Positions 11,096 through 38,016 of a DNA stretch of 64,000 nucleotides are shown here, piece by piece. Position 1 is the stretch's first letter, and each line of letters begins with the position of its first letter. The stretch covers positions 59,981 to 123,980 of the forward strand of contig CALXTU010000001.1 of the NCBI GenBank assembly GCA_944391495.1, written 5' to 3'. The notes beneath the pieces were generated by a model, which made no database searches, was not told the origin of the DNA, and saw nothing but the letters and a program-made list of their open reading frames with translations. Position numbers and translations under genes: made by a program. This stretch comes from an uncultured Alphaproteobacteria bacterium. GTDB taxonomy: Bacteria > Pseudomonadota > Alphaproteobacteria > RF32 > CAG-239.

Positions 11096-11097
11096 AT

Positions 11098-11174: not shown

Positions 11175-11373
11175 GTATTATGAAAATCTTAATAATTCTG
11201 TCGCAGGCGAACCTGCTCTTGCTCCTAAGCTTCGGCGCTTTACGCCTTCGCTAACTCGCTGCGGTCACTCGGTTTGTAACGTTTATTTCGCGGCGCTGAC
11301 GCTTGCTTATAAACTAACAAACTCTCGCCTTTCGTTGAAAACCGCTCCACCGGAGCTGTTTTCCGCCTCAAGC

Positions 11374-11494
11374 CTCTACGATGTCAACGTAACGCGACTG
11401 GCCACCTGAGCTACACACCCGTATTATGAAAATCTTAATAATTCTGTCGCAGGCGAACCTGCTCTTGCTCCTAAGCTCCGGCGTTTTACGCCTT
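11374..11494 (-). pseudogene. Duplicated tRNA-Val 5' half (anticodon stem to 5' end, D-arm altered) plus ~75 bp of upstream/promoter sequence
   Basis: About 121 bp, near-identical to 11129-11249: ctctacgatgtcaacgtaacgc...cctgagctacacacccgtattatgaaaatcttaataattctgtcgcaggcgaacctgctcttgctcctaagct. The D-loop tctaa is replaced by gactgg. Confidence 0.8.
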
Positions 11495-15044: not shown

Positions 15045-15735
15045 ATGTGACCGCAATAATAATCTGCGTATCTTAACCCTGATGAATATTTTTCAGGATA
15101 TGGCCGACAATGATGCCGCCAGGCTCAATTTCGGACTAGCCTTTTGTATTGCTAACGGCATGACCTGGGTCGGCAGCAATTATGCGCTGGAAATCGACCG
15201 GCTGCCGAAAATACACGAAAATATAACCATTGAGACATGGCCGTCGGCCAAAAACAAACTTTCGGCTTACCGCGATTTTGAAGTTTTCGGTGAAGACGGA
15301 AAGCCGATTATCCGCGCCTCCAGCCAGTGGGTTATGCTTAATCTGGAAAAAAGGCGGCCGGTTTCGGTCATTGATGCCCTGCCGCAGTATCAGCCGCTAG
15401 AAGAGCGTGCCGTGGCAACGGATTTTCCAAAAATCGGCGAAATTACCGACGGCGACAGCCAATTTAAATTCCGGGTGAGGTTTGACGATATTGATCTTAA
15501 CAAGCATATCAACAATGCCGTATATATTCTGTGGGTGACCGAGGCGGTTGAGCCGGAGTTCCGACTGGCGCATAATCCGGCGAGAATCGACATCAACTTT
15601 CGCAAAGAAGGTTATATGGGCGAAAAAATCATGGTCATTACCCGCATGGAAGATTTGAAATCTTACCACAGTATCCGCACCTATGATTCGGACAACGAAC
15701 GCGAGTTGGCCCGGGCCGTTATTGAATGGAAATGA
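14998..15735 (+). CDS. Acyl-ACP thioesterase (hot-dog fold)
   Basis: Two hot-dog repeats with typical acyl-ACP thioesterase patterns: YECDRNN...MTWVGSNYALEIDRLP and the catalytic-region DIDLNKHINNAVY. Confidence 0.7.
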   Translation: MQATKYRKQYNIRSYECDRNNNLRILTLMNIFQDMADNDAARLNFGLAFCIANGMTWVGSNYALEIDRLPKIHENITIETWPSAKNKLSAYRDFEVFGEDGKPIIRASSQWVMLNLEKRRPVSVIDALPQYQPLEERAVATDFPKIGEITDGDSQFKFRVRFDDIDLNKHINNAVYILWVTEAVEPEFRLAHNPARIDINFRKEGYMGEKIMVITRMEDLKSYHSIRTYDSDNERELARAVIEWK

Positions 15736-15747
15736 TTTTATGATATA

Positions 15748-15784
15748 TAAAAAGCCATTTCTGCCGGCACCGGCAGAAATGGCT
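15748..15784. terminator. Bidirectional intrinsic terminator between convergent genes
   Basis: Perfect palindrome gccatttctgccgg-cac-cggcagaaatggc flanked by an A-run and a T-run. Confidence 0.8.
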
Positions 15785-15793
15785 TTGTTGCAA

Positions 15794-16171
15794 CTACTTC
15801 CGGTAAACATCGGCCCGTTTCAAAAGGTATTCAAGCCTTTTGTAATCAGACCGTCCCGGGGACATAACGCGGAAATAATACCGTAATTCGTCAACATCTT
15901 CTTTAGAGGCATATTGCATCCAAAGTTCGACATTCTCATAGATAATATCAATTTTTTCGTGCACCGTCAGATTCTGCATCCGAACAGTCATATCGCGATA
16001 AAAATTGTAATCTCTTACGGCAAAATATATTCCCGTGAGGCAGCCGGCCGCAATACATAGACCGATTACCCCCACAAACAAAACGCCGCCGGCAAAGCCG
16101 ACAACACCGGCGAAAAGCGCTATGATGACAATCGCCACGCCCCATAAAACCTGTTGCTTTAGTCTTTTCAT
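15794..16171 (-). CDS. Small membrane protein (two TM helices), hypothetical
   Basis: ATG at 16171 (MKRLKQQ) chosen over the TTG at 16234. Two long hydrophobic helices (VLWGVAIVIIALFAGVVGFAGGVLFVGVIGLCIAAGCLTGIYF). Confidence 0.4.
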   Translation of the reverse strand: MKRLKQQVLWGVAIVIIALFAGVVGFAGGVLFVGVIGLCIAAGCLTGIYFAVRDYNFYRDMTVRMQNLTVHEKIDIIYENVELWMQYASKEDVDELRYYFRVMSPGRSDYKRLEYLLKRADVYRK

Positions 16172-16293
16172 AACAATAATTTTAAAATGATACCTTTGTA
16201 CCTTTTTTGTAACATTATCGGAGCCGTTTAGCAAGAAAAATACTGGATTTTTGGTAAAATGCCTCTAAAATGAGCACAAGAGGTGTTATGCTT

Positions 16294-17019
16294 ATGCAAA
16301 CTTATGATGAAAATTATCTGCTGAACAAGCGTGTGAAAATTTATCAGCCTTTTGAGGGATACCGGGCATCGACCGATGCCGTATGGGTTGCCGCGGCGGT
16401 CAGCCGGGTTAAAAAAGGCGATAATATTTTAGACGCCGGCACGGGGACGGGAGCCATAGCCCTTTGCCTGGCACAGCGTTTTAAGAACTGCGGCATATCA
16501 ATTACCGGAATCGAAAAACAGCCTCTTTTGGCGCAGGCAGCTGCCTTAAGCGCCAAGGCCAACGGTTTTGATTTTGTACAAATCATCAATGCCGATATCT
16601 TTCATGCCGGGCTCAAACCTTGTTCGTTTGCCCATGTCATCACCAACCCGCCTTATGCCGAAGACGATATGCCCTCCCCGAACAACAGTAAGGCCATGGC
16701 TCATAATTTTCAGGACGGAGGTCTGAAGGAATGGCTTGATTTCTGTATCAAGATGCTGCGGCCGCAGGGACATTTTTATATTATCAACCGCGCCGAGGCC
16801 CTGGAAAACATTATTGCCTGCCTGCACGGGAGACTGGGAAAAATAGAGGTGCTGCCGCTGTGCTCCAAGCCCGGACAGCCTGCCAAACGCGTCATTATAC
16901 GGGCGCAGAAAGATTCCAAAGCACCGCTGGTGCTGCATCCGGCAATTTTGATTCATCAGCCGGACGGCTCACATTCGGCAGCGGCCGAGGCGGTTTTGCG
17001 CGACGGTTTGTCAATTTAA
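16294..17019 (+). CDS. tRNA1(Val) (adenine37-N6)-methyltransferase, TrmN6/YfiC-like (N6-adenine MTase with NPPY motif)
   Basis: SAM-binding LDAGTGTGAI and catalytic NPPY. Start ATG 16294 preferred because AGAGGTG lies at RBS distance; 16270 and 16288 are alternatives. Confidence 0.7.
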   Translation: MQTYDENYLLNKRVKIYQPFEGYRASTDAVWVAAAVSRVKKGDNILDAGTGTGAIALCLAQRFKNCGISITGIEKQPLLAQAAALSAKANGFDFVQIINADIFHAGLKPCSFAHVITNPPYAEDDMPSPNNSKAMAHNFQDGGLKEWLDFCIKMLRPQGHFYIINRAEALENIIACLHGRLGKIEVLPLCSKPGQPAKRVIIRAQKDSKAPLVLHPAILIHQPDGSHSAAAEAVLRDGLSI

Positions 17020-17118
17020 ATATTGACATATCAGTCTTTTGGCTTTATAAAGCGGGGTGTCCGAGGACTCCGGATTTTCCGGAGCTTTAAATAACGATAA
17101 TTAACCGGAGAAAATAAA

Positions 17119-17253
17119 ATGAAACGCACATATCAACCTTCAAAGCTGGTAAGAGCCCGTCGTCACGGTTTTCGCGCACGGATGGCAACTGCGGGCGGAC
17201 GCAAAGTTCTGGCCGCACGCCGCGCTCATAACCGCAAAAAGATTTCGGCGTAA
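17119..17253 (+). CDS. rpmH: 50S ribosomal protein L34
   Basis: Encodes [44 protein letters not shown] (44 aa), too short for the ORF track. GGAG RBS. Directly precedes rnpA. Confidence 0.95.
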
Positions 17254-17264
17254 TTTTTGTTAAG

Positions 17265-17651
17265 ATGAAAGTTTTTATCTTAAAAAAGCGCAAAGACTTT
17301 GTTAAAGCCGCCCAGGAATTTAAAGTTGTTGTCAACGGTTTGGTTCTGCAGGCGGCTTTAAATTTGTCCGAAAAGGCAAAGGACTGCTGTTTTGTCGGCT
17401 ATACCGCCACCAAAAAGCTGGGAAAGGCGCATATTCGCAACCGCACCAAACGCCGGCTGCGGGCAGCGGTGGCAATGGTTTTTCCCTCTTTGGCAAAGGC
17501 CGGTGTTAATTACGTTGTTATCGGCCGCCACAATACAACCGAGCTGGAATTTGCTTATCTTACCCGGCGGCTGCGTGACGCTATTAACGAAATAAACGCC
17601 CAAATTGAAGCCCGGCAACAGTCCCCTTCCGAAGCAGAAGAAAAGTTATGA
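17265..17651 (+). CDS. rnpA: Ribonuclease P protein component
   Basis: Basic 128-aa protein immediately after rpmH. Conserved RnpA RNR-like region (NRTKRRLR). Confidence 0.85.
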
Positions 17652-17881
17652 TAAAAAAGCTCATGATCGGAATGATAAGGTTTTATCAACGTTGTCTGTC
17701 CCCTCTGCTGCCCAATGTCTGCCGTTATCGTCCGACCTGTTCGGAATATTTTATTGAGGCGCTGATGACGCACGGCGTGATTAAAGGAAGCTGGCTGGGC
17801 ATTAAAAGAATCCTGCGTTGTCACCCCTGGGGCGGAAGCGGTTATGACCCGGTGCCACCGGGAAAACAAAAAAACGAATAA
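17648..17881 (+). CDS. yidD: Membrane protein insertion efficiency factor YidD
   Basis: [10 protein letters not shown]...[13 protein letters not shown] conserved YidD motifs. Overlaps the rnpA stop. Confidence 0.9.
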
Positions 17882-17963
17882 CCCGGGATATTCGCTTGCT
17901 TAAAGGCGTTATTTATACTACATATTGAAACAATACGGTTTGTTTTGAGGAGTTTGAACAAAT

Positions 17964-19649
17964 ATGAGAGATGAAACCAAAGGCCTGTATCTGGCGATTT
18001 TGCTTTCGGCTGTCGCTATTCTGCTGATTAACTGGATATGGCCGAGCAACAGGCAAATTGCCGCGACGCCGGCTGCGGTCGAGGAACAACAGCCAGCCCC
18101 GCAGGTTGAAAACGAGGATACAACCGATTTATACAAACCGGCCGAGCGTGAAATCGTTGCCGTTGAAGAAGCCTTGAAAGCCGATAAGCGCGTTGATATT
18201 GCCAATGCCAAAGTGGTTGGTTCTCTCCGGCTCAAAGGCGCCAGATTTGATAATCTGTACCTGACCAATTACAAACAAACCCTGGAAGAAAACAGTGCCG
18301 ATGTCGAACTTTTGATGCCGGGCTCGACGTTGTCGCCTTATTATGCCGAATTCGGCTGGCTGAGCAACAATCCTTCGATCAAGCTCCCCGGCAGCCAAAC
18401 CGTCTGGAAGGCCGTCGGCGGCAAACTGACACCGGAATCGCCCCTGACTTTGGAATGGAACAACGGACAGGGACTGAAATTTGTGCGCAAGATTTCGCTG
18501 GATAAAAATTATATGTTCAATATTGAACAGATTGTCGAAAACACAACCGGAAAAAGCATCACCCTTTATCCTTACGGGCTTATCAACCGGGTTTATGCGC
18601 CGCAGGAAAGCGCCTCCAGCATTGTTCACGAAGGGCTTATCGGCGTTATCGACACCAACCTGAAAGAATTTAAGCCTAAGGATTTGGACGTCGGCGATAA
18701 AGAGGAATTTGAAACAGCCGGCGGCTGGCTCGGTTTTGGCGACAGATATTGGTTTTCGGCCATTGTGTTGAACAACAATGCACAAAACAAAGCGCGGTTT
18801 GCCAGAACGGCCGAAGACACCTATCAGGCCGATTATGTCGGCGCACCGGTGGTTGTTGCCGGCGGCAGTGTCGGCACCAGCAGCATCAGATTTTTTGCCG
18901 GTGCCAAAGAGATTAAACTTTTGGATTATTACACCAAAAATGCCGGTATTGAAAAATTTGATCTGGCGGTTGATTTCGGCTGGTATTATTTTTTGACCAA
19001 GCCTTTCTTTTACATTCTGGACTTTTTATACCGTTTTATCGGCAACATGGGCTGGGCAATTTTGTTGTTCGCGGCGCTTTTACGGCTGGTGATGTTTCCC
19101 ATTGCCAACAAGTCGTACGAAAGTATGTCCAAAATGAAGAAAGTTCAGCCGAAAATCATGGCGCTGCAGGAAACTTATAAAAACGACAAAATGCGCCTGC
19201 AGCAGGAGATGATGAATTTGTATAAAAAAGAAAAGATTAATCCGGCGTCGGGTTGCCTGCCGCTGCTGATACAAATTCCGGTATTTTTCTCGTTGTACAA
19301 GGTTTTGAACATTGCCATTGAAATCCGCCATGCCCCGTTTGTCGGCTGGATTAAAGATCTTTCGGCGCCGGATCCGATGACGCTTTCGGCAATGACGGGA
19401 ATCCCTATTCCGAGCCTGCTTGACCTCGGCGTGTGGCCGATATTGATGGGTATTACAATGTATATACAGCAAAAGCTGTCGCCCAAACCGGCTAACAAGG
19501 ATCAGGCAAGAATGTTTGCGCTGATGCCGGTCATCTTTACCTTTATGCTAGGGCATTTTGCCTCCGGACTGGTGATTTACTGGACGCTGAGCAATGTTTT
19601 GTCCATTATTCAGCAGCGCGTTATCATGAAAAAGGTCGGGGTTGATTAA
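17964..19649 (+). CDS. yidC: Membrane protein insertase YidC
   Basis: 561 aa: N-terminal TM, large periplasmic domain, C-terminal five-TM core. rpmH-rnpA-yidD-yidC synteny. Confidence 0.9.
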
Positions 19650-20293
19650 TGGCTTTTGCGGCAAAAGATTTTACCCCTGAACAACTTGCCGCTGCCGAGG
19701 CTCTGTTTAAACGCGGCACGACGTTTGTGCTGGGAGTTGCCAAGGCAGAACAGCTACCGGCGGCCGACCGGCCGGAGATTGCTTTTGCCGGACGTTCCAA
19801 TGTCGGGAAGTCAAGCCTGATTAATGCGGTAACAGGACAAAAGGGCCTGGCCAAAACATCTAACACACCGGGACGTACCCAGCAGCTTAATTTTTTTGAT
19901 CTGGCCGGATTACTTTATCTGGTTGACCTGCCGGGATACGGCTACGCGCAGGCGCCGGAAGCCCAGGTTAAGCAATGGCAGAAGGTAATTTTTGCTTATT
20001 TGCAGGGGCGTCCGAATCTGAAAAGGGTATTTTTGCTTATCGACTCGCGTCACGGTATTAAAAAAATTGACCGCGAGATTATGGAAATGCTGGACAAAGC
20101 CGCGGTAACTTATCAGATTGTCTTAACCAAGACGGATAAAATCAGCTCGGCGGCTCTTATGCAAATTCTGGCCGAAACCGAAGCGGAAACCGCCAAACAC
20201 GCGGCGGCTTATGTACGGGTTTTGACAACGAGTTCCGAAAAAAAGGCCGGTATTGATGCCTTGCGCGCCGAGATAGCCGCACTGACTGAATAA
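19649..20293 (+). CDS. engB: Ribosome biogenesis GTP-binding protein YihA/EngB
   Basis: G1 motif [10 protein letters not shown]3 DLPGYG, G4 TKTD. ATGA overlap with the yidC stop. Confidence 0.9.
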
Positions 20294-20315
20294 ATCTTTT
20301 AGCTTGAAAAAAAAG

Positions 20316-20343
20316 CCCGCAAACTATCATTTGCGGGCTTTAA
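20316..20343. terminator. Bidirectional intrinsic terminator
   Basis: agcccgcaaa-ctatca-tttgcgggct hairpin flanked by A8 and a T-rich run, between convergent engB and the lipoprotein gene. Confidence 0.8.
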
Positions 20344-20357
20344 TTAATTTTGTTTTC

Positions 20358-21452
20358 TCAGCGGACGAAAACCATAACGGCCGGCGAACTGACTTTGGCG
20401 TCGGTTTTGGCCGAGATATTGACACGGTCGGCGCTTACACCCAGCTCAATAATATCCTGAAAGATTTGCGAGGCATATTTCTGGGCATTGTTGCCGCGCG
20501 GCGAATTGACCGCAACAACATCAAAAATAACATCCGGTTTTTTGGCCACGGCATTGGCAACCGCCTGTTTTAAACCTTCCTGATATTTGACATCGGGAGA
20601 GCTGAATTTGACTGCCAACAAAGGTTTACCGCCGGCAAGCGCCGGAGCGGCTTTGGCATTCGGCCGGGGAAGTCCTTCAACAGACATCGGCGAACGGCTC
20701 AAAGGCACGTTATTGACGCCGAAACTGCCGACGCGAATGGCATCGCTCAATTTGGCAATGTTGTTACTTGCCGTTTCGATATACTGCTGCTGGCGGGTGA
20801 TATCGCTGTTGACTTCGCCCAGCAGAGAATGCATCAAAATCGAGGTTTGACCGGCTTCGTTTTCCAAAACGCGCAACTGGCGGTGATCCTCGTCAACCGC
20901 ACCGGATATGCTGTATGCCGAACGAATAGCATCAACCAGATAATCGGTGTTGGCGGTATCGGCGGCAATTTTGGCCGACAACTGATCCAAAGCGGCCGAG
21001 TTGGTGCTCATGGTCTGAATGTTGTTTTGGGCAATTGAGAGCATCTCAAACATCTGCGGGTTGCCCGGCGTGGTACCGACCTGCAGTTTGGCCTCAATCA
21101 TGCCGATGGTTTTATGATATTGCAACGCATTGTTGACAACGGATTTTCTGATATTCTGCAATTGGGTGTTGTTTTCCCTGATGGACGACTGCAACTGGCT
21201 CAATTCGCTACGGAAAGTCATAACCTTCTGACCGACAAAAGTTCCGGTATTGCTGACTTCGGAAACATTAACGGGCTCAAAATTGGTGGTTCCCAAAGCA
21301 ATGCCGGCGGCCTGAGCGTTGTTTTCTTCAGAAGTCTGCGCGGCGGCATCATCTCCGAAAAGCGACGGGAAAATGGCATCAGACGAATAGGTGCATCCGC
21401 CCAGAGCGATTGCCGCGACCATTAAAGAAGATAATTTTGCTAATTTTGTCAT
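20358..21452 (-). CDS. Putative lipoprotein with coiled-coil region
   Basis: Lipobox LGGC signal peptide (MTKLAKLSSLMVAAIALGGC). Central Q/N/L-rich heptad-like segment. No recognisable catalytic motif. Confidence 0.5.
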   Translation of the reverse strand: MTKLAKLSSLMVAAIALGGCTYSSDAIFPSLFGDDAAAQTSEENNAQAAGIALGTTNFEPVNVSEVSNTGTFVGQKVMTFRSELSQLQSSIRENNTQLQNIRKSVVNNALQYHKTIGMIEAKLQVGTTPGNPQMFEMLSIAQNNIQTMSTNSAALDQLSAKIAADTANTDYLVDAIRSAYSISGAVDEDHRQLRVLENEAGQTSILMHSLLGEVNSDITRQQQYIETASNNIAKLSDAIRVGSFGVNNVPLSRSPMSVEGLPRPNAKAAPALAGGKPLLAVKFSSPDVKYQEGLKQAVANAVAKKPDVIFDVVAVNSPRGNNAQKYASQIFQDIIELGVSADRVNISAKTDAKVSSPAVMVFVR

Positions 21453-21673
21453 CGAAAAAGCACCCTAATAAAAAAATAACATTCTTTTTTGTTTTTACAC
21501 TATCTGCCGGTTTTGTAAAGAAATTTTTTACAAAAAGACAGGTTTTAAAATTCAGTCTGCCTTAAAGATAGTCCATTTTATTAAATTATTGGTAAAGAAA
21601 TAAATTTTTTTAGCAAAAAAATCGCTTGCTTTTTTGATTATGATGATGTAATAACTGTTTCTGTCATAAAGAT

Positions 21674-21750
21674 GCGCCCGTAGCTCAATTGGATAGAGCA
21701 TCTGACTACGGATCAGAAGGTTGTGAGTTCGAATCCCGCCGGGCGCGCCA
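21674..21750 (+). tRNA. tRNA-Arg (anticodon ACG)
   Basis: Acceptor GCGCCCG/CGGGCGC, D-arm GCTC-AATTGGAT-AGAGC, anticodon stem TCTGA/TCAGA with loop CTACGGA, T-arm GTGAG-TTCGAAT-CCCGC (one A-C mismatch), CCA encoded. Confidence 0.8.
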
Positions 21751-21754
21751 TTAA

Positions 21755-21785
21755 AAACTCCCTGTCACAGGGAGTTTTTTATTGC
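21755..21785 (+). terminator. Intrinsic terminator after tRNA-Arg
   Basis: ctccctgt-cac-agggag followed by T6. Confidence 0.8.
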
Positions 21786-21886
21786 CCGAATTAAAAATTT
21801 TCTCACTTTTTGTCGCGTTGTATAAAAATTTGAAGCCCCCTTATCATCGGGAGGAATGCCTCCCGATGAGCGATGACGATACCTTG

Positions 21887-21948
21887 TCATGTTGAGCGAA
21901 AGCGAAACATCTGAGAGATTCTTCGGGACTATCGTCCCTCAGAATGAC
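21887..21948. repeat. Family-A palindromic repeat unit (plus partial unit to ~21975)
   Basis: gtcatgttgagcgaaagcgaaacatctgagagattcttcggg-actat-cgtccctcagaatgac. Preceded by a second hairpin catcgggagg-aatg-cctcccgatg (21848-21871). Confidence 0.85.
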
Positions 21949-21974
21949 AAGGATGGAATGCGCAGAATGACAGA

Positions 21975-22003
21975 AAAAGCCTCCGTTAAAAAGGAGGCTT
22001 TTT
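21975..22003. terminator. Intrinsic terminator hairpin downstream of the 22022-22936 gene
   Basis: aaaagcctcc-gttaaaa-aggaggctttttt. Confidence 0.7.
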
Positions 22004-22021
22004 TGTGAACTTTTCCGGCTT

Positions 22022-22936
22022 TTAAACACTCAGCAGGGTTGAAAACAACTGACTGGTTTTGTCTTGTTTGCTTTTAATCGAAGACAAATTGGTGTAAGCA
22101 TCAGACAGCATTGTTGCGGTTGCCTCATATTTCTGCGCCTGTATCTGCGCAGCATAAGCCGATGAAATGTATTCGGCCGACGACGTGCTTGATGTCAGCG
22201 ATATGGTTTGGTTTTCCGAATCTGTCGATTTATTTTCGGTTACCAAATAGTCGTTACGATATTTATCGCCCTGACGAATTTGCATAACATAGGGCGTGCT
22301 GGCGCTCGGCGTTTCTTCCTCCGAGCTGACCTCGATATAGTAATAACCTTTTTTGGCCTTATAATCGCCGGACAAAATCGCTTTCATATTGGCATATTCA
22401 TCGGAACTTTTATCTGCTGTCGAATCACCAACAGTTACGGTGCGATTACCCTGCTTCATATAAACCTTAATGGTCATACCGGGCGCAATATCGTCAAGCA
22501 ATCCTTTTTTGGCCTCTTCACGGGCAGCCTTTTGTTTCTCGACTTCGGCGCGGGCAATTTCCAGCGGCGTTTTCGGCGTGGTGTCAATAACCTCTTCCTC
22601 GGTTTTGATGCCCATCGCCTCCAACTCAGCCTTAATTTCTTCCAGACGGGTTTCGTACTTGGATAAATCCAAGACATCGCCGTCATCGGTCGAATCGCCG
22701 GTGCGCAGGTTGATAAACAGCTTGCCGTTTGACTGAACCTGAACCATGTACATATCTTTATTGTCATACTGGTCCAGTGTCGCAATAACGGAAATACGCG
22801 AATCGTTTAAGCGCGACCAGCCGAGATCACGGGCATTGGCAAAGCTTTCGTCAACATTGTTGACGTCGGTAACCGATTTGTCCCAGCCGGCGATATTGCT
22901 GCTTTCCGTTGAGCTGCCTACACTCGAAATAGCCAT
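22022..22936 (-). CDS. Hypothetical acidic Ser/Thr-rich protein (304 aa), no signal peptide; candidate secreted or surface protein
   Basis: No recognisable enzymatic motif. Ser/Thr-rich N- and C-termini with an acidic central coiled-coil-like region. Flanked by tRNA-Arg and a family-A repeat. Own AT-rich promoter region 22937-23015. Confidence 0.45.
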   Translation of the reverse strand: MAISSVGSSTESSNIAGWDKSVTDVNNVDESFANARDLGWSRLNDSRISVIATLDQYDNKDMYMVQVQSNGKLFINLRTGDSTDDGDVLDLSKYETRLEEIKAELEAMGIKTEEEVIDTTPKTPLEIARAEVEKQKAAREEAKKGLLDDIAPGMTIKVYMKQGNRTVTVGDSTADKSSDEYANMKAILSGDYKAKKGYYYIEVSSEEETPSASTPYVMQIRQGDKYRNDYLVTENKSTDSENQTISLTSSTSSAEYISSAYAAQIQAQKYEATATMLSDAYTNLSSIKSKQDKTSQLFSTLLSV

Positions 22937-23015
22937 GGCAATTCTCCCTGATAAAAAATTACCTTATATTTTATAATAGCATGAATTTTCTAAACAAACA
23001 ATTAAATTGTTCGTT

Positions 23016-24164
23016 TTACGCAGCAAACAGATCTTTGATTTTGTCAAAAAAGCTTTTGGCCTCCGGCTGGCAGGAATCTTCTTTGCCGATGCTGCGAAAC
23101 TCCTCCAGAAGCTCTTTCTGGCGCGCCGAAAGGTTAACCGGGGTTTCAACCCGCAGTTTGACAAACAAATCACCGCGGCGTTCGGTGCGGACAACCGGCA
23201 TCCCCTGTCCCTTAACCTTAACAACCTGATCCGTTTGGGCGCCGGGGGCAATGGTCAGCTCAATCTTGTTGCCGTTGATGGCCGGGATTTCTATCTTGCC
23301 GCCCAAGGCCGCACAGCACATTGAAATCGGTATGCGGGTGTATAAACTGGCGCCGTCACGCTCATAAAGCTTATGTCCTTTAACATTGACAAAAACATAT
23401 AAATCACCGTTCTCGCCGCCGCGGATACCGGCCTCTCCGGCGCCCTCAACACGCATACGGGTGCCGTCTTCAATACCGGCAGGAATTTTGACCTTAATGA
23501 CTTTGTTTTTATTGATAAACCCCTTGCCTTTGCAATCCGGGCAGGCATCTTTAACCAAACGCCCCGTTCCCTTGCACTGCGGGCAGCTTTGTTCAACCAC
23601 AAAAAAGCCCTGTTGCAGACGCACCTTGCCTGAACCGCCGCAATGCGGGCAGACGGGAGCCTCGCTACCGTCTTTAGTGCCGTGACCATGGCAGGTTGCA
23701 CAAGTTTCGGTTGACGGGAAACTGATTTCTTTTTCTAACCCTGAAAAAGCCTCTTCAAGCGTTATGCTCAGGTTATAGCGGACATCCTGGCCGCGCTGAG
23801 CGTAGCTTTGTTTGCGACCGCGACCGCCGCCCATAAATTCGGAAAAGACATCGGCAAAAATATCGGCAAAGCCGCCGGCCGCACCGCCAAAATCAAAATT
23901 AAACCCGCCAAACGGATTGCCGCCGCCCATGCCGCCGTTTTGAAACGCCGCATGGCCGTAGCGATCATATGCGGCACGTTTTTGATCATCTTTCAAAACC
24001 TCATAAGCCTCGTTTATCTCTTTGAAGCGGGCTTCGGCCTCTTTATTGCCGGGATTGCGGTCGGGATGATACTGCATTGCCAGACGGCGAAACGATTTTT
24101 TAATTTCATCACCGGTAGCGGTTTTGGAAACTTCCAATATTTCGTAATAGTCTTTTTCTGTCAT
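23016..24164 (-). CDS. dnaJ: Chaperone DnaJ (type I: J domain, G/F region, four CxxCxGxG zinc-finger repeats)
   Basis: J domain YYEILEV...[29 protein letters not shown] and CPDCKGKG repeats. Confidence 0.95.
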
Positions 24165-24390
24165 AACCCGTCAACGCCTTTTTATATTTTTGCTTGCTCT
24201 TTATTTAGGGATATTCACCGGAAAATGCAAGCTATTTCGGCAAGTTTTTGAATTAAAAGCATAAAGTATATATTAATAAATTTTTGCTAAGATTGTTTTA
24301 ATGGAAATTTTGACAAAAATTATTGTTTTTTCTGTCAATAATATGATACAGTAATAATATGAATGCAGGTTCATACAGGAGTTTATTGCC

Positions 24391-27300
24391 ATGACTAATA
24401 CATCTAACTGGCCAAGAGAAGTCATTGATATTGAACAATTAAAAACCGTTTTCGACGATAACAATATTAATATAACTGATGAATTGGACATTGTTTTGCG
24501 GCAAAGGGCTCATGTCGATTTACCTTACGGCAAACGCTACCAGCATGTAAGATTTGCCACAATTCTGGGCGCTGTTTATGTTCCTGACAGTATTTATAAA
24601 GAAAAAGAACGCGAAAAACACTTAAAAAAGCTCCGCCGCTATTATGACCAAAATGCGACAAAATCTTATATTAAACTGGAAACGGCCGAATTTTACTGTA
24701 ATTTTCTGGATCAAATCAAAGACAGCATTGAACAGCGGCACCCCGGAGTCAAATTACCCTTGATATCTATTGATAAGCCTTTGGAAAAGCAAGAACATTT
24801 CCATGGATCTGGCTCAAAAAAAGAGAAAAAGACCAAAACCCTTAATGATAAAATCGTTAAAATAGACCGTTATCAGGTTATTAATCCTTCGTGTTTACAA
24901 AAACTATCAGCTGATGAACTGTCCAAGCTGCTTGACGAGGTTTTTCAGAAGCGTAGTGCAGATCTCACCTCTACTGCCGATAAAGATAAACTGCTTAATC
25001 TTATATCCAATATTAAATATGCCTTTGCTTATGCACAAAATGACGGCAAAAGTTTAGAACAAAATTCCCATTTAAATCAGGCGCGACGGCTATATAACTA
25101 CCGAGCCGGACAAAACCTCACTCCGCAAACCCAAAAGCTTTATGTTACTTATATGGAAGCGGTTGAGGAAAGACTGAGAAACGAGCACCCTGATTATCAG
25201 GTTGTTTATGATGAAATTCCGTTGCTTTATGAAAACAACCAACCAGAACCCAGACCAGGACCAGGACCAGGACCAGGACCAGGACCAGGACCAGGACCGG
25301 GACCGGAACCGGGGCCTGAGCCTAAGCCGAGACCGGGGCCTGAGCCGAATAAAAAAACTCTGGACGGCTATACCTCGGACGAATGGACCCAGCTGTTGGA
25401 TTCGGCGGTAAAAACGGCTGTTGTTGAAGAAGAAAATCTGACTGAAGGAATTGCCGTTACTTCACTTAAAGAAGTTTTGGGCAAAAAATTTCCCGACAAT
25501 TTTGATACAATGTCTTTGGACGAGATAGAAAGCGAGGTTTTGGCCAAACTCAATCCGGCACAAATAGCACAGTTTAATATTAAAGTTACCGAAAAGGCAC
25601 AAACACTGGCTGAATGCCTGCCGCCGCACTTTTTGACCTTTACGGCCAAACAAACCGATGCGGCTCTGGGCAAAAACGGTATTGACGATGACCTCAAACA
25701 GACGCTAACCGGGCAGCAGGAAATTTTGCGCAGTGCCATAAAAGATATTATTACGCAATATCATACCGGTGTTGTTATTGATGCCGATAATGCGGCGGGT
25801 GTTTATGACGGTCTGAAAGAGATGCTCGCCTATGCCAAGGCTCATAATCTCGGTGAAGCGGAAAAAATCAGCGGTATTTTGGCCAAACTGGAAGAAAGCA
25901 TTAAAGAATATGATGCCAACAACGGTTTGGACAAAGTTACCGAGAACAATCTCGAGGCTGTCAACAAAGCTTATGACACGACGAAAACAGATGTTGACGG
26001 TATCCTTGCAAAAAGCGACTGGGAAACGCAGTTTACAAATATTCTGGATGATGATACTAAAGAAATATTTAAGCAAATCACTTTTCCGGAAACAACAGAC
26101 GAAAACGGAAACAAAACTCCGGCTGAAGAGAACAAAAAGCTTTTTGTCGAATTGATTTTGAACAAAGCCGCCCAACAGACCGCCTGCTCATCGCATGATA
26201 AATCCGGCAATGATTTAAAAAGTGTTTTAAACGAACAAATCAAAGAAACTGCCGTTGCCGAAATCTTTACATTAATGGCTGCGGAAGAGGCTGTTAAAAT
26301 TAACGGAGACCCTAATCTCCGCGCTGAATTGACGGTATCGCCCGGCGATAATATTGCGGCAAAGAAACAAAAACTCGCGGCTTATATATCAAACAAGCCG
26401 GCGGCCACCGCTGTCAGCAAAGATGCTCTTGCCGGTTATTTTGCCGCTGCGGTCAATCGTCAGTCGCTATTTGCCAACCGCCTGGCAACCAAGCTGAATA
26501 ACCGCGGTGCCGGCGTGCTCAAAAAAATGTGGCAACCTTTCCAAAAGCTTGATAAAACCTGTATCAACAGATTTGGCCTGCTTTATACCGTTCCTCGCGG
26601 CATTTTCAAAAATTCACTGCAAAATCTGCCTTGGAGCGCATTAAACGCAGTTGCCAGAGTTGCCGCTTTTTCACAAGTCGGCACCCCGTGGGGAATGGCC
26701 TGTGTTGCCGGATATGCCGCTTATAGCCTGGGAACAACGGCAATCCGCATGATCAGACAATATAAAAAGATCAAAAAACAAGATAAGAGTATGACTCCCG
26801 GAAAATATCTTAAAAACAACTGGTCCGCCATGGCTTTGTCGGTGGTCGGAACGGCGGTATCGGTTATTCCGGGGCTGAGTACCGGCAGCGAATTTTTTAA
26901 AGGCGGACTGGAATGGATGAGAAATACCGGCATGCTTGAACGAACCGGTTTTCTGGGAATGACAAAAGCCAGTGCCGGCCTTATCGGTGCCGGGATGTTG
27001 GATTCGACCATCCGGGGCGCGAAAGCTCATCATGCAGCCGGTAAAGGATGGTTTAAATCTATTGGGGCAGCATTAGGATCTTCGGTTCTTTCCAGTGCGG
27101 CAGGTATTGGTGTGGGCATGGGCTGTGCGACCGGTGCCAACGAATTATTAAATTCCGGCATGAATTTGTTTGGAGATGTCAAAACACAAAATATTCCTAC
27201 CGAATCTTATGAACCTGACAATCCGGATCATTCCAAAGAACAAATTTCTCCCGGAGAATATGATCCTGCTAATCCGAGCCATAGCAAAGAGGCTATACCG

Positions 27301-28332
27301 ACAGACAAACTGGGTATCGGAACAGCCGAAGATTTAACCAAATTGTCCCCTGATGAACTGGCGGCCAGAGGTTTGGTCAGAGAGGATGCCTCGGCTAATG
27401 AACCCGGTGCCTTTTTGACCAGGGAAGAAGTCAGGGCTTATACGACTCATGATTACAGCCAGGAGGAACATAATTTTGCCGAAATGCGCAATTCAGATCC
27501 CCGCTTCAGCGAATTCCTCGAGAGATATCATGTTGCATCTGACTTGCAGGATCCCGCTAATCCGGACAGCGTTTCCGCAACAGCTACGGATAAGATGGCT
27601 CAGGCCATTGACGCCATTGCCGACAAGCATCCTGAAATGCAAAGTGATATGGGTAACGGCAAGTTGCAGAATAATACACAAATGCTTATGTATAAATTGA
27701 CGCAAATGGCTTATCTGGCACCCAATACCGATGCCATGACAACCGACGGAATCCCGGTCGGCGAACAATTCGGCTATCAAAACGAAGATGGTTCGTATAC
27801 GACCTATATGGATTTGATTAAAGAGGCTGTCAATGACGGAAAATTCAGCAACCCTGAAAAAGCCTATGAGGTTTTGATGAAGATTGAAGACCATGTCGGC
27901 GGACAATTGGATAACAGTGTAAACGATATGGGTAAAGTCGATATGTTCGGCAACCAGATTGAAACAGGCAGAAACGTTAATTCCTATCAGGAAAACGATG
28001 CCGGTTATACGAAGCATGAACACCCTGGACAACAGGCCGAATATGAGAAGATTTCCCGGTTTGAAAAGACTACGGAAACAACTTATATGCCTTATAATCC
28101 GTCAATTGATCTTTATAAACAGGTTACCGAGGGAAAAGAGGTGCTGGCCCGTGTTATGGGTAATCACGGCAGATACGAAGAAGGACAGCTTAAACCTGAT
28201 GTTGTCAAAAAAATGCCGGGCATTTCGCAAAATGCCGAAAACAGCAATAATTCCGGCACAACGAATTCTAGAAAAGGTAACATATTTACCAGAATTTTCC
28301 GCCGCGGCGGTAATGGTAACGGAAGACAATAA
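24391..28332 (+). CDS. Giant hypothetical protein (1313 aa) with Pro-Gly repeat linker and central multi-helix hydrophobic domain; effector-like candidate
   Basis: AT-rich ORF inserted between dnaK and dnaJ, opposite in orientation to both. In-frame PGPGPG repeat from the (ccagga)7 microsatellite. About 170 aa of Gly/Ala-rich hydrophobic helices around residues 730-900. Duplicated 13-aa motif YEPDNPDHSKEQI / YDPANPSHSKEAI. No signal peptide. Confidence 0.6.
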   Translation: MTNTSNWPREVIDIEQLKTVFDDNNINITDELDIVLRQRAHVDLPYGKRYQHVRFATILGAVYVPDSIYKEKEREKHLKKLRRYYDQNATKSYIKLETAEFYCNFLDQIKDSIEQRHPGVKLPLISIDKPLEKQEHFHGSGSKKEKKTKTLNDKIVKIDRYQVINPSCLQKLSADELSKLLDEVFQKRSADLTSTADKDKLLNLISNIKYAFAYAQNDGKSLEQNSHLNQARRLYNYRAGQNLTPQTQKLYVTYMEAVEERLRNEHPDYQVVYDEIPLLYENNQPEPRPGPGPGPGPGPGPGPGPEPGPEPKPRPGPEPNKKTLDGYTSDEWTQLLDSAVKTAVVEEENLTEGIAVTSLKEVLGKKFPDNFDTMSLDEIESEVLAKLNPAQIAQFNIKVTEKAQTLAECLPPHFLTFTAKQTDAALGKNGIDDDLKQTLTGQQEILRSAIKDIITQYHTGVVIDADNAAGVYDGLKEMLAYAKAHNLGEAEKISGILAKLEESIKEYDANNGLDKVTENNLEAVNKAYDTTKTDVDGILAKSDWETQFTNILDDDTKEIFKQITFPETTDENGNKTPAEENKKLFVELILNKAAQQTACSSHDKSGNDLKSVLNEQIKETAVAEIFTLMAAEEAVKINGDPNLRAELTVSPGDNIAAKKQKLAAYISNKPAATAVSKDALAGYFAAAVNRQSLFANRLATKLNNRGAGVLKKMWQPFQKLDKTCINRFGLLYTVPRGIFKNSLQNLPWSALNAVARVAAFSQVGTPWGMACVAGYAAYSLGTTAIRMIRQYKKIKKQDKSMTPGKYLKNNWSAMALSVVGTAVSVIPGLSTGSEFFKGGLEWMRNTGMLERTGFLGMTKASAGLIGAGMLDSTIRGAKAHHAAGKGWFKSIGAALGSSVLSSAAGIGVGMGCATGANELLNSGMNLFGDVKTQNIPTESYEPDNPDHSKEQISPGEYDPANPSHSKEAIPTDKLGIGTAEDLTKLSPDELAARGLVREDASANEPGAFLTREEVRAYTTHDYSQEEHNFAEMRNSDPRFSEFLERYHVASDLQDPANPDSVSATATDKMAQAIDAIADKHPEMQSDMGNGKLQNNTQMLMYKLTQMAYLAPNTDAMTTDGIPVGEQFGYQNEDGSYTTYMDLIKEAVNDGKFSNPEKAYEVLMKIEDHVGGQLDNSVNDMGKVDMFGNQIETGRNVNSYQENDAGYTKHEHPGQQAEYEKISRFEKTTETTYMPYNPSIDLYKQVTEGKEVLARVMGNHGRYEEGQLKPDVVKKMPGISQNAENSNNSGTTNSRKGNIFTRIFRRGGNGNGRQ
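25255..25296 (+). repeat. Perfect hexanucleotide microsatellite (ccagga)x7, in frame, within the giant ORF; degenerate ccggga/ccggaa/ccgggg units extend to ~25350
   Basis: Read directly: ccaggaccaggaccaggaccaggaccaggaccaggaccagga. Confidence 0.95.
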
Positions 28333-28356
28333 AAAAACAAACAATATTAGTACAAT

Positions 28357-28396
28357 CAAAGCGTCCCTTGTCTTTTCAAACAAGGGACGCTTTTTA
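28357..28396. terminator. Bidirectional intrinsic terminator between the convergent giant ORF and dnaK
   Basis: Perfect 12-bp stem agcgtcccttgt / acaagggacgct with loop cttttcaa. A-run upstream, T5 downstream. Confidence 0.85.
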
Positions 28397-28425
28397 ATAT
28401 CAAGACTTAGCGCTTTGATAAGTCT

Positions 28426-30339
28426 TTATTTGACTTCTTCAAAATCGGCATCAACAACCTTGTCGTCTTTTGGCTGTTCGGCCGAAGCGCCGGTATCGGC
28501 ACCCTGGGTGGCTCCCTGAGCCTGCGACTGAGCCGCCTGAGCCTTATACATGGCCTCGCCGAGTTTCATTGAAGCCTGCATCAGACTTTCGGTCTTTTCT
28601 TTGATTACCGACAGATCATCTGCTTCCAGTGCCGTCTTTAAAGCATTGATTTCTTTTTCAATCGCCTCTTTTTCGGCCGGGGAAACTTTGTCGCCGTTTT
28701 CTTTCAGCGTTTTTTCGGTCGAGTGAACCAAAGCTTCCGCCTGGTTTTTGGCCTCAACGATTTCTTTCTTTTTCTTATCGGCTTCGGCATTGGCCTCGGC
28801 GTCTTTAACCATCTTCTCAATATCGGCATCGGACAGACCACCGCTGGCCTGAATACGAATCGCCTGCTCTTTGTTGGTGGCTTTATCTTTAGCCGAAACG
28901 TTAACAATACCGTTGGCGTCAATATCAAAGGTTACTTCAATCTGCGGCATACCGCGCGGTGCCGGCGGAATACCAACCAGATCAAACTGGCCCAGAAGTT
29001 TGTTATCAGCCGCCATTTCACGTTCACCCTGGAAGACGCGAATCGTAACCGCCGTCTGGCCGTCTTCGGCGGTTGAGAATACCTGCGATTTGCGTGTCGG
29101 AATGGTGGTATTGCGGTCAATCAAGCGCGTGAAGACGCCGCCCAAAGTTTCAATACCCAAAGACAAAGGCGTAACATCAAGCAGCAGAACGTCTTTGACA
29201 TCGCCCATCAAAACGCCGCCCTGAATGGCCGCGCCGACAGCAACAACTTCATCCGGGTTAACGCCTTTATGCGGCTCTTTGCCGAAGATCTCTTTAACTT
29301 TTTCCTGAACCTTGGGCATACGAGTCATACCGCCGACCAGAATAACCTCGCTGATATCCGACGGGCTGACTCCGGCATCGGCCATGGCCTTTTTGCAAGG
29401 CTCAACCGTTTTTTCAATCAAATCCTCAACCAAAGATTCCAGTTTGGCGCGGGTTAATTTGATGTTTAAGTGTTTCGGCCCCGTGGCATCCGCCGTAATA
29501 AACGGCAGGTTAACTTCGGTCTGCGTGGTTGAAGACAACTCGATTTTGGCCTTTTCGGCGGCTTCTTTCAAACGCTGCAGAGCCAGACGGTCATTCTTCA
29601 AATCGATGCCGCTTTCTTTCTTAAATTCTTCCGACAGGTAGTTGACCAAACGCTGGTCGAAGTCTTCGCCGCCGAGGAAAGTATCGCCGTTGGTCGATTT
29701 AACCTCAAAGACGCCGTCGCCGATTTCCAAAATCGAAATATCAAACGTACCGCCGCCCAAGTCATAAACCGCGATGGTACCGTTGGTCTTTTTATCCAAG
29801 CCGTAAGCCAAAGCAGCAGCCGTCGGTTCGTTGATGATACGCAGGACTTCCAGGCCGGCAATTTTACCGGCGTCTTTAGTCGCCTGACGCTGCGAATCGT
29901 TAAAGTATGCCGGAACGGTAATAACGGCTTTTTCAATTTTTTCGCCAAGATAGCTTTCGGCATATTCTTTAATCTTCTGCAAAACAATCGCCGAAATCTG
30001 CGACGGAGCATATTTCTGACCTTTTACCTCTACCCAGGCATCGCCGTTGTCGCCTTCAATAATTTTGAACGGAACCAAAGCCTTGTCTTTGGCTACTTCA
30101 GGCGAATCGTAACGACGGCCGATCAAACGTTTGATAGCAAACAGGGTGTTTTCCGGATTGGTTACCGCCTGGCGTTTGGCCGGAAAACCGACCAGACGTT
30201 CGGTATCGGTAAACGCAACCATTGACGGCGTGGTACGCGCGCCTTCGGAGTTTTCCAAAACCTTGGCCTCTCCGCCTTCCATAACGGCAAAGCAGGAGTT
30301 GGTCGTACCCAAGTCAATACCTATAACTTTATTGCTCAT
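28426..30339 (-). CDS. dnaK: Chaperone DnaK (Hsp70)
   Basis: [18 protein letters not shown] and [11 protein letters not shown] signatures. 637 aa with acidic C-terminus. Confidence 0.97.
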
Positions 30340-30453
30340 AATCTTTTCCTTCTTTCTAAAGTTCGATTTTTATCTGTCTAGTTGCTTATATAGGAATCAG
30401 ATTTTGGCTGTGCAAGAGTTGAAATTATTTTTTTTGCAAAAGAATTTTACCGT

Positions 30454-31023
30454 CTAAAAATTCAGCTCAAGTTCTTCAAGCACACATTCAAAGCTTTCTT
30501 TATCCGGCGAGCAGGCATAGGCGCCGACATCGGCAATATCCGATATCTTGGGCAGATGCAACATTCTTATCTGGCGGAAATCTGCGCCATCGATTGATGA
30601 CATAGCCACAAAATCTTTGCCGCGACGGCGCAGGCGCAGCCAGATTTCACGGCAATCTTCCGGCAGATTGCCGACCGACCAGTCGGAAGACCCCTGATTG
30701 GCACTGACAACGCCAATCTGCGGGGTTATAAAATTGGGGGAAAGGAGGCCTGCTTTTATCCAGTTCTGAGCATCAGAGCGAAACATCAGACCACATTGCG
30801 CCGAATTTTTGACCAGCGGAAAAGACCATTTGACCGTCAGAACAAAATCGCCGGATATTTTTTTGGCAAATAAATGGCCGTCGTCTTTTTGAAAACGACA
30901 ATCAACATTCTGCCAGAAATCTGTCCGCGGGCGGGTTTCAATCAGCATACCTTCTTCAACAAAACGGACATTTTGCGGATCATTGTACCAATCGAAATCT
31001 TTAATGTTTTCAAGAATCATCAA
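30454..31023 (-). CDS. Hypothetical protein (DUF1349-like beta-sandwich?), co-operonic with the CbpA-like J-protein
   Basis: 189 aa, no signal peptide or TM. Stop overlaps the upstream J-protein gene (ATGA). Family assignment is a recollection-based guess. Confidence 0.3.
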
Positions 31024-31949
31024 AAAGTCCTGACTGTTTCATCCGGCATATGCGAAAGCGCCTGTTCAAGCTCGGAGCTGGCGGTTTTCGGCATAACCAC
31101 TTTCAAGGTCATAATCTGATCACCGCCTTTAACTCCTTTGCCTTTAAGGCGCAGTTTTTCTCCGGTTGTCGCATAGGGCGGAATATTGACGGCTACCTTA
31201 CCGGTGATGGTCGGCACGGTAACCTTGGCACCCAAAACAGCCTCTTTAAGAGTTATCGGCAGCTCCAGCAAAATGTTTTTGTCTTCCAGCTCAAAATAGG
31301 GGTGCCGGTCAACATTTAAGGTAATCAGCACATCCCCTGGCGACCCGCCGTTCGGGCTGGGTTCGCCCAGGCCTTTAAGCCGCAGCGTCTGGCCGTTTGA
31401 AGTGCCGGACGGAATTTTGACATTGATATTTTTACCGTTGATATTAACGGTTTTTTCTTCACCGCGAACCGCCGACAAAAAGTCTATCCGCATGGTATAG
31501 TTAATATCCGCCCCTTTGCGCGGCCGACGCGAGGTATTGCCGAAACCGCCTCTGAACGGACCGTTGCCACCGGAAAACTGAGAAAAAATATCATCGCCGA
31601 AAATTGACGAGAAATCAAAAGATGCTCCGCCGGCACCGAAAGGATTGCCGCCGGACGAATAGGTTTGATATCCGCCGGTGTCAAATCCGCCGCTGCCGAA
31701 ACCTCCGGCACCGAATCCGGTCGGTTTACCGTCGGCATCTATTTCGTTGTTGTCATATTTTTTGCGTTTTTCCTTATCGCCCAAAATATCATAAGCGCAG
31801 GAAATTTCTTTGAATTTTTCGGCGGCGTTTTTGTCGTCTTTGTTCAAATCCGGGTGATATTTACGAGCCAGCTTGCGGTAGGCGGATTTTATTTCGCTGT
31901 CCGAGGCCGTCTTATTCACACCCAATATCTGATATAAATCTTTGTTCAT
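31020..31949 (-). CDS. J-domain protein, CbpA-like (DnaJ paralogue lacking the zinc finger)
   Basis: J domain [32 protein letters not shown]. Gly/Phe-rich region, two C-terminal beta domains, no CxxCxGxG repeats. Confidence 0.8.
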
Positions 31950-32020
31950 TGCCTGATAAATCCGTAAAAAATAAATTTGTCTTTTTATTTAATATAGGCA
32001 AAGCAAAAGGGCATTGCAAG

Positions 32021-37955: not shown

Positions 37956-38016
37956 GTCATTCTGAGGGACGAACGTCCCGAAGAATCTCTTAGATGTTTC
38001 GCTCCGCTCAACATGA
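37956..38016. repeat. Family-A palindromic repeat unit, inverted orientation (plus partial unit to ~38057)
   Basis: gtcattctgaggg-acgaa-cgtcccgaagaatctcttagatgtttcgctccgctcaacatgac is the reverse complement of the 7858 and 21887 units. Confidence 0.85.

Follow-up and report, generated by a model that had tools for sequence, protein, structure and literature searches.

In proteobacteria, dnaK and dnaJ canonically form one operon under sigma-32 control, in which the two genes are adjacent and co-directional and share a single heat-shock promoter. For exposed proteins, mosaic exchanged alleles are well known, as in the S-layer cassette slpA of Clostridioides difficile, pspA and pspC of Streptococcus pneumoniae, and vacA of Helicobacter pylori. 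Here, a 64-kb stretch of DNA from an uncultured alphaproteobacterium (contig CALXTU010000001.1) was analyzed; it is called the window below, and all coordinates are window positions. In this window, dnaJ (382 amino acids [aa]; 23016-24164, minus strand) and dnaK (637 aa; 28426-30339, minus strand) flank a plus-strand open reading frame (ORF) of 1313 aa plus stop codon (24391-28332). This ORF, referred to as the big gene, encodes an orphan modular protein predicted to be all helical. As a whole, we place high confidence in the evolutionary description given here, that of an old lineage-specific gene with exchangeable alleles.

Both chaperone genes were identified from the ORF list and by NCBIfam matches (DnaJ, 8.5e-160; DnaK, E=0), and the giant plus-strand ORF that had been noticed between them from the sequence alone was confirmed. 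The window has the same two genes as the canonical operon, in the same order and orientation, with a sigma-32-type site upstream of dnaK. However, dnaK and dnaJ are parted by 4261 bp carrying the opposite-strand gene, a terminator follows dnaK, and a second, independent sigma-32-type site serves dnaJ, so that the two genes are no longer adjacent members of a unit with one shared heat-shock promoter. The big gene is head-to-head (divergent) with dnaJ and convergent with dnaK, and a Shine-Dalgarno sequence (AGGAG, 24377-24381, plus strand) was read 9 nucleotides (nt) ahead of its ATG. Because dnaK and dnaJ have sigma-32-type sites of their own, the big gene has a conserved palindrome, and a bidirectional terminator is present, the former dnaKJ unit appears to be three transcription units now, namely, dnaK, dnaJ, and the big gene, as judged from predicted promoter and operator activity.

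The sequence-only reading had proposed a recently acquired effector gene in the dnaK-dnaJ operon, with a product that is secreted, perhaps via a pilus/type II secretion system (T2SS)-like machine of the window, and inserts into a target membrane. The age of the gene was examined by synteny. A first homologue search of 5.8 billion proteins yielded 10 close clusters, all metagenomic and none with a Pfam domain, and the family grew to 95 representative clusters in an exhaustive search with a profile. The contigs of the close clusters were compared together with eight loci from species-representative genomes. Wherever both flanks were retained, dnaJ and dnaK enclosed the homologue, which was on the opposite strand; this was true even of homologues with as little as 35% protein identity. 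At the loci of P0023, P0027, and P0031, where DnaJ is 64-74% identical, dnaK has moved away, yet the homologue and dnaJ remain head-to-head, 185-235 bp apart. The remotest family members lie in other housekeeping neighborhoods and are no longer beside dnaJ. A recent island would leave the site empty in relatives and show atypical composition throughout; instead, the gene was found at the same site in all of the 20+ related loci. Because it occupies the same place in all relatives down to a DnaJ identity of 64%, the big gene is not a recent insert, and the proposal of a recent whole-gene horizontal insertion was not borne out. The sequence-only reading had itself named a gene and position shared by relatives as the outcome that would speak against insertion, and this is what the comparison of the dnaK-dnaJ junction revealed. 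The big gene is ancestral at this locus, head-to-head with dnaJ in the deep clade and flanked by dnaJ and dnaK in the inner clade.

Selection maintains the big ORF as a genuine gene, and its orphan family is restricted to uncultured Alphaproteobacteria, as seen from the 10 close and 95 representative clusters, the low ratio of nonsynonymous to synonymous substitution rates (dN/dS), and the Shine-Dalgarno sequence ahead of its start. The members of the 95 clusters are mostly 1000-2100 aa long, all come from metagenome-assembled genomes (MAGs) of Alphaproteobacteria, and, if named at all, are called "hypothetical protein [Alphaproteobacteria bacterium]". At one locus (L009, 4331-8145), the homologue is broken into ORFs of 207 aa and 1044 aa, by a frameshift or pseudogene in that MAG or by an assembly error.

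Horizontal transfer, as suspected earlier, is real at this locus, as allele replacement of the 3' three quarters of the gene and not as the source of its presence; breakpoints, cross-species sharing, and synonymous divergence (dS) all bear on this. Between the window and locus L001, the DNA is 97-99% identical over 14468-25395 and 92% identical from 28425 (the dnaK stop codon) to 37724. Over 25396-28424, no similarity was detectable by blastn between the window and either L001 or L019. L019 has the same two breakpoints as L001, and the flanks of both are 96-99% identical to the window up to 25395 and 92-94% identical from 28425. Between the window and these loci with differing alleles, the flanking proteins are 99-100% identical and the N-terminal domain (N-domain) is 100% identical, whereas the helical and basic modules are only 32-37% identical. 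A further locus, L021, carries the window's allele, with ~95% identity throughout.

The reverse pattern was also observed. L019 and L007, two species whose flanks are ~82% identical, are 75-90% identical in dnaJ, dnaK, and the N-domain, yet share ~2.3 kb within the gene at 99-100% identity. L019 and L001, elsewhere 98-100% identical, differ in an internal 1-kb block (58-85%). The core of the window protein is closest to that of L016 (DnaJ, 74% identical; basic block, 49%), and its C-terminal domain (C-domain) is closest to that of L008 (57% at the aa level and 68% at the nt level), itself on an otherwise different allele. The breakpoints are sharp, the same allele occurs on diverged backgrounds, and different alleles occur on near-identical backgrounds. 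The big gene is a recombination mosaic, in which the N-domain and the linker evolve with the genome, whereas highly divergent alleles, passed between strains and between species, take the place of the ~3 kb that follows the Pro-Gly linker (with the terminator), either whole or in smaller blocks. From the blastn breakpoints, the cross-species sharing, and the module incongruence, the exchanged hypervariable segment was placed at 25396-28424 (plus strand), a stretch that takes in the remaining ORF and the 3' spacer. On the left, the breakpoint falls just past the repetitive Pro-Gly linker DNA and, on the right, at the end of dnaK, which is strongly conserved; homologous recombination could plausibly be anchored at either site.

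In the comparison of the window with L021, dS is 0.02-0.045 in the post-linker modules versus 0.12 in dnaJ, 0.17 in dnaK, 0.19 in the neighboring gene orf304, and 0.32 in a cbpA-like gene. Because the post-linker dS lies below that of the flanking genes, the window allele is younger than its background. For the same pair, dN/dS is 0.16 overall and 0.2-0.27 in the variable part, with each sub-region value resting on 3-8 substitutions; from these small counts, the ratios indicate purifying selection within the allele class.

This pattern bears on a different explanation, in which the product is a cytoplasmic or inner-membrane-peripheral housekeeping scaffold tied to DnaK/DnaJ (a pole or envelope organizer, a large client, or a tether) and the variable region is merely weakly constrained. 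Such a scaffold would accord with the absence of a signal peptide, with a single-copy core gene in housekeeping neighborhoods, and with the head-to-head linkage to dnaJ, which persists even where dnaK has moved off. In addition, Pro-rich linkers and low-complexity helical regions are typical of the alphaproteobacterial polar scaffolds PodJ, SpmX, and PopZ, and the basic amphipathic block could bind the inner leaflet. However, the within-class dN/dS of ~0.2 shows constraint, and weak constraint leaves the allele-exchange pattern unexplained: since nucleotide similarity falls to zero amid genomes that are 93-99% identical and identity across species with 82% identical flanks reaches 99-100%, allele import is needed. 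Neither a J-domain nor a known chaperone-interaction domain was found by Pfam and NCBIfam searches, and the remote family members are not beside dnaJ. Thus, we regard the scaffold explanation as unlikely.

From the deep allele classes, the young alleles on older backgrounds, and the within-class purifying selection, we infer diversifying or frequency-dependent selection on the big gene. Under such selection, the variable part probably meets something beyond housekeeping (phages, host factors, or competitors, for example), and the product thus probably faces an outside antagonist or partner. One gene here joins a vertically inherited N-domain to a remainder that is replaced across species, and genes of this kind usually mark the interface of a bacterium with phages, host, or competitors. 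The big gene is therefore a concrete target for finding such an interface in an uncultured lineage and a natural strain-typing locus.

The composition of the gene had been taken as a further sign of foreign origin. The shift toward AT is real but moderate, both for total GC (44.5% versus 49.0 ± 3.1% over 50 window genes; z = -1.45) and at third codon positions (GC3, 42.5% versus 53.6 ± 4.8%; z = -2.3). The lower GC3 is in keeping with a recently acquired effector gene, but the codon-usage distance is ordinary (rank 31/50). Moreover, the lowest GC within the gene belongs to the conserved, vertically inherited N-domain (37.7%) rather than to the variable part.

The spacer between dnaJ and the big ORF (24165-24390) comprises 226 bp of ~34% GC and contains two conserved cis-elements, in agreement with the earlier suggestion that the gene has its own AT-rich upstream control region. 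The first element, found by pattern scan, is a predicted sigma-32-type promoter of dnaJ (CTTGcAt-N14-CCCtAaAT; 24203-24231, minus strand). Similar promoters were predicted for dnaK (CTTGcAc-N14-tCCtATAT; 30388-30416, minus strand) and upstream of the cbpA-like gene (CTTGCAA-N14-GCCTATAT; 31992-32020, minus strand). The pattern CTTG-N16-19-CYTANAT has three matches in the 64 kb versus 0.71 expected, all three of them on the minus strand and directly upstream of dnaJ, dnaK, and the cbpA-like gene. With their N14 spacing, the three sites fit, as sequence matches with predicted promoter activity, the proteobacterial sigma-32 consensus CTTGAAA-[N11/16]-CCCCAT (PMC545781). The dnaJ element is kept in 11/11 aligned loci, and because of this conservation the arrangement is considered old and stable. 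A stable, ancient three-unit rearrangement of the dnaKJ locus thus replaces the attractive story of an island splitting a chaperone operon.

The second element is the palindrome TTGACA-N17-TGTCAA (24310-24338, plus strand), located 53 bp upstream of the big-ORF start, which may act as an operator and/or a -35 element. It has a single match in the window versus 0.00 expected. In 16 related loci it occurs exactly once per locus, invariably 50-80 bp upstream of the homologue start.

In the convergent gap between the big ORF and dnaK, hairpin folding and conservation predicted a bidirectional intrinsic terminator (28358-28395), in line with the insulation of the big gene from dnaK proposed earlier. 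It combines a GC-rich hairpin with a T-run, as expected for a Rho-independent terminator: a perfect 14-bp stem (28358-28393) is followed by TTTTT, with a folding free energy of -23 kcal/mol (z = -7.25; 0/200 shuffles as stable). Because A's stand on one side and T's on the other, it can work in both directions, with a weaker T-run on the dnaK-facing side (TTTGATTG). A comparable A-run/hairpin/T-run is present between the big ORF and dnaK in every related locus, and the stem sequence differs by allele class; the predicted terminator function is thus conserved while the terminator sequence turns over. An Rfam scan of the locus for structured RNA gave no match.

At the protein level, the family is modular, with three N-terminal types, a common core starting at a YTSDEW motif, at least two C-domain types, and optional C-terminal extensions. 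Type A consists of a 280-aa domain and a Pro-Gly/Pro-Glu linker, type B of a ~50-aa charged stretch, and type C of a 100-210-aa MADFTxEELEEI region with a Pro-Glu-Thr linker. The window protein has a conserved type-A N-domain (aa 1-282; 24391-25236, plus strand), followed by the linker (aa 283-325; 25237-25365, plus strand), with 42% Pro and 23% Gly. In the linker DNA, Tandem Repeats Finder located a 6-bp tandem array (ACCAGG x 10.5; 25242-25304), which accounts for the Pro-Gly repeats recognized earlier. The linker varies in length among strains and is 10 aa shorter in P0001. The core then begins at the family-wide YTSDEW motif with an acidic helical region (aa 326-660; net charge, -26; 25366-26370, plus strand), continued by a basic Gly/Ala/Ser-rich block (aa 661-935; net charge, +24; 26371-27195, plus strand).

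Beyond the basic block, translation and alignment bore out the duplication of a 13-aa motif, YEPDNPDHSKEQI (aa 940-952) and YDPANPSHSKEAI (aa 957-969), encoded within 27208-27297 (plus strand); the motif is single-copy in relatives (consensus, DEYNPDDPSYSK). The C-domain (aa 1011-1313; 27421-28329, plus strand) is one of at least two alternative types and ends in an Arg-rich tail, KGNIFTRIFRRGGNGNGRQ; GFFxRIF-like tails also occur in P0005 and L012. The residues conserved across the family are polar positions in helices. In the acidic part these are LPP411-412, D464, N467, D470, Y472, G474, Y507, and D508, and in the basic block N689, R697, K701, D721, and R727. A cysteine protease was considered because of DKTCxxR (D-x-x-C-x-x-R, aa 721-727) and was dropped, as C724 is not conserved and no invariant His follows it.

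Two further differences in architecture were observed among the related loci. The type-B members L008, L011, and L014 carry an extra C-terminal extension (~200 aa), with KALPEHQEA repeats and a conserved block, YKVVHGIKPNESERIRYKSLVQNEWK, that the window protein lacks. At L012, an extra 130-aa ORF (11093-11485) lies between the homologue and dnaK, in this type-C locus only.

Searches of the whole protein against Pfam, NCBIfam, and PDB sequences returned only Pro-rich low-complexity matches, and profiles of the core and the N-domain found nothing below E 0.06 among PDB sequences. Nothing meaningful was found in PHROGs; none of three queries (the window protein, P0011, and P0012) matched PADLOC at E <= 0.01; and a fold search of the N-domain by Foldseek against BFVD gave no match at E <= 0.001. 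The earlier impression of a protein with no known domain or catalytic motif was thus upheld. The analysis adds an orphan family from uncultured Alphaproteobacteria, with proteins of 1000-2100 aa for which these searches revealed no relative in Pfam or PDB or among phage and defense proteins.

These results also bear on the idea that the product is a polymorphic toxin, forms pores like a bacteriocin, or acts as a single-gene abortive-infection defense, with the Gly-rich helices as pores and the variable C-terminus as a toxic or sensing part. In keeping with it would be the horizontal exchange of alleles, the GxxxG-like spacing in the Gly/Ala-rich helices, and the shuffling of variable C-terminal modules behind a conserved N-terminus. 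However, a known trafficking or toxin domain was found by neither Pfam nor NCBIfam, and PADLOC models and PHROGs provided no match that would place the protein in antiphage defense. In the window and most loci, just a 48-93-bp terminator spacer precedes dnaK, with no immunity-type ORF. Furthermore, the gene belongs to the fixed core and occupies a conserved housekeeping locus instead of a variable island, and its variable ~1000 aa stay homologous between alleles, unlike unrelated toxin tips. A toxin or defense protein is therefore highly improbable here.

With respect to the membrane, the N-terminus, MTNTSNWPREVIDIEQLK, is polar and acidic, and the first 30 residues have no hydrophobic core, which agrees with the earlier statement that a signal peptide is absent. 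The Gly/Ala-rich block contains four hydrophobic helices below the transmembrane threshold (aa 767-788, 809-834, 852-870, and 888-917; within 26371-27195, plus strand), as judged by Kyte-Doolittle (KD) hydropathy and the apparent free energy of insertion (dGapp). Their KD values are 1.0-1.6, the first of them starts after residue 745, and basic loops of 15-25 aa lie between them. The summed dGapp of the four segments is +4.3 to +5.8. By comparison, three membrane proteins encoded in the window, namely, YidC, the T2SS-F protein, and an ABC permease, have values of -1.7 to +2.6, and soluble controls have values of +5.5 to +7.7. Between the first two helices, the loop (RQYKKIKKQDKSMTPGKYLK) is strongly basic, and because it would be periplasmic if the N-terminus were cytoplasmic, the positive-inside rule would be broken. 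Thus, the protein has neither the hydrophobicity nor the topology of a classical polytopic inner-membrane protein. A Gly/Ala-rich hydrophobic block of several helices had been predicted and is present, but it is weakly hydrophobic and strongly basic instead of a bilobed, strongly hydrophobic domain. Its composition suggests either a helical block that is peripheral or becomes membrane-active under some conditions, or helices buried within a soluble bundle.

The remaining part of the effector proposal concerns secretion. The pilus/T2SS-like machine referred to earlier is a chromosomal type IVb pilus cluster (20-7753), comprising a secretin, PilO, a 456-aa protein, a T2SS-E ATPase, a T2SS-F platform protein, and two PilS/bundlin-like pilins. 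T2SS substrates require an N-terminal Sec/Tat signal, and because the big protein has none, export by this route is unlikely. Genes of type I, III, IV, and VI secretion systems (T1SS, T3SS, T4SS, and T6SS) were absent from the 64 kb, whose other genes are housekeeping genes. The four weak segments with basic loops also do not form the bilobed domain of T3SS translocators or Inc-type proteins. For an effector speak the missing signal peptide and known domains, the horizontal movement of alleles, and the Arg-rich C-terminal tail (6 Arg/Lys and no acidic residue among the last 22), the last in a stretch devoid of T4SS genes. In addition, as reported by Krampen et al. 2018 (PMC6110835), transmembrane effectors of T3SS and T4SS have sub-threshold hydrophobicity, below that of resident inner-membrane proteins, and the segments of the big protein likewise lie just under the inner-membrane targeting range, which leaves some room for an effector-like reading. 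Taken together with the synteny, which refutes its recent-insert part, and the ordinary codon usage, we consider a recently acquired secreted effector quite unlikely.

In the working model, a helical core would follow a conserved module at the N-terminus and a flexible Pro-rich spacer, which together would carry it. This core would consist of the acidic region, followed by the basic Gly/Ala-rich block of four sub-threshold hydrophobic helices. Unlike a standard Sec/YidC-inserted inner-membrane domain, the basic block would bind a membrane or enter it only under certain conditions, and the swappable C-domain would give specificity. The adjacency to dnaJ is most simply explained as historical linkage through the shared 226-bp control region. 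Overall, the explanation that we favor, with some reserve, is an ancestral mosaic orphan gene whose envelope-associated or exported, conditionally membrane-active product is under diversifying selection. A membrane-active, externally facing function of the protein, taken by itself, is a tentative proposal that we lean against.

Several points weigh against this explanation. The population sample is tiny, consisting of four genomes of the species-level group with two allele classes, and balancing selection is for this reason an interpretation of the pattern; the sub-region dN/dS values carry the small counts given above. Localization, export, and membrane binding are predicted from the sequence, and it is from composition that membrane association is modeled, because the AlphaFold2 model of the core is poor (predicted local distance difference test score, 43.7), with the acidic region best predicted and all helical. 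It could also be that the protein forms a soluble bundle with the four hydrophobic helices in its interior. In the 64-kb window, no protein-secretion system was found besides the type IVb pilus. Finally, the lasting linkage to dnaJ over deep divergence could be a functional tie instead of history.

A bolder possibility, and one that we rate as very unlikely, is that the family represents an unrecognized class of exported, membrane-inserting proteins of gut/rumen-type uncultured Alphaproteobacteria, with sub-threshold helices, target-determining modules, and a dependence on DnaJ/DnaK. If so, the sub-threshold hydrophobicity of the helices would spare the producer's own inner membrane from insertion, in the manner of T3SS/T4SS transmembrane effectors, and whether a host, a phage, or a competitor is targeted would depend on the swappable core and C-terminal modules. 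The conserved divergent arrangement with dnaJ would then reflect a need for DnaJ/DnaK to hold a 1300-aa helical protein export-competent.

Several neighboring features were recorded. Downstream of dnaJ, orf304 (22022-22936, minus strand) is lineage-specific, and in the inner clade it is always found in this position; like orf364, described below, it stays close to dnaJ and the big gene in relatives. That orf304 might also accompany the family as a conserved partner in remote clades was not supported by the comparison. The remote members at L024 (5001-10161) and L025 (1714-7110) are head-to-head with a Na/Ca-exchanger-family gene, and these homologues are followed by a conserved 315-327-aa protein with a signal peptide, unrelated to orf304. 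The lineage-specific orf364 (20358-21452, minus strand) has a lipoprotein-type signal (LGGC) and lies directly downstream of the big-gene homologue in L016 and directly downstream of dnaJ in L010 and L012. On the dnaK side, the cbpA-like J-protein gene (31020-31949), near the third sigma-32-type site, overlaps a DUF1349 gene (30454-31023). Besides its chaperone genes, the window contains a LonB/LonC-like AAA protease gene (53986-56415). A 33-bp palindrome resembling repetitive extragenic palindromic elements, TCATTCTGAGGGACG..CGTCCCGAAGAATCTC, has intergenic copies at 7887-7919, 21915-21947, and 37957-37989, with 0-2 mismatches and 0 expected by chance, and is matched in related loci too.

Compared with known systems, the big protein shares with T3SS/T4SS transmembrane effectors and translocators (PMC6110835) the lack of a Sec signal, clustered sub-threshold hydrophobic helices, and a positive C-terminal tail. 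However, the big protein has four weak segments with basic loops in place of one or two transmembrane hairpins; here, the 64 kb hold no T3SS/T4SS genes, no chaperone gene for secretion is adjacent, and homology to known effectors was not found. Polymorphic toxins (CdiA, Rhs, LXG, and MafB) resemble it in joining a conserved N-terminal part to variable, shuffled C-terminal modules. They differ in that the big gene has no immunity gene or known trafficking/toxin domain and in that its variable part makes up three quarters of the protein and is homologous between alleles.

Like PodJ, SpmX, and PopZ, the big protein is large, lineage-restricted, and helical/low-complexity, with a Pro-rich spacer and no enzymatic domain. 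Unlike a member of these groups, it shows no detected sequence similarity to them, and cross-species allele replacement is not known from PodJ, SpmX, or PopZ. The comparison with slpA, pspA, pspC, and vacA is instructive in both directions. Proteins of those systems are known to lie at the surface and carry a signal peptide or leave the cell by an established export route, none of which applies to the big protein; there is no sequence or fold kinship, and the slot here lies between two chaperone genes. Nevertheless, the same pattern recurs in the big gene: deep allele classes at one fixed chromosomal slot, sharp recombination breakpoints, identical segments on diverged backgrounds, and purifying selection within each class.

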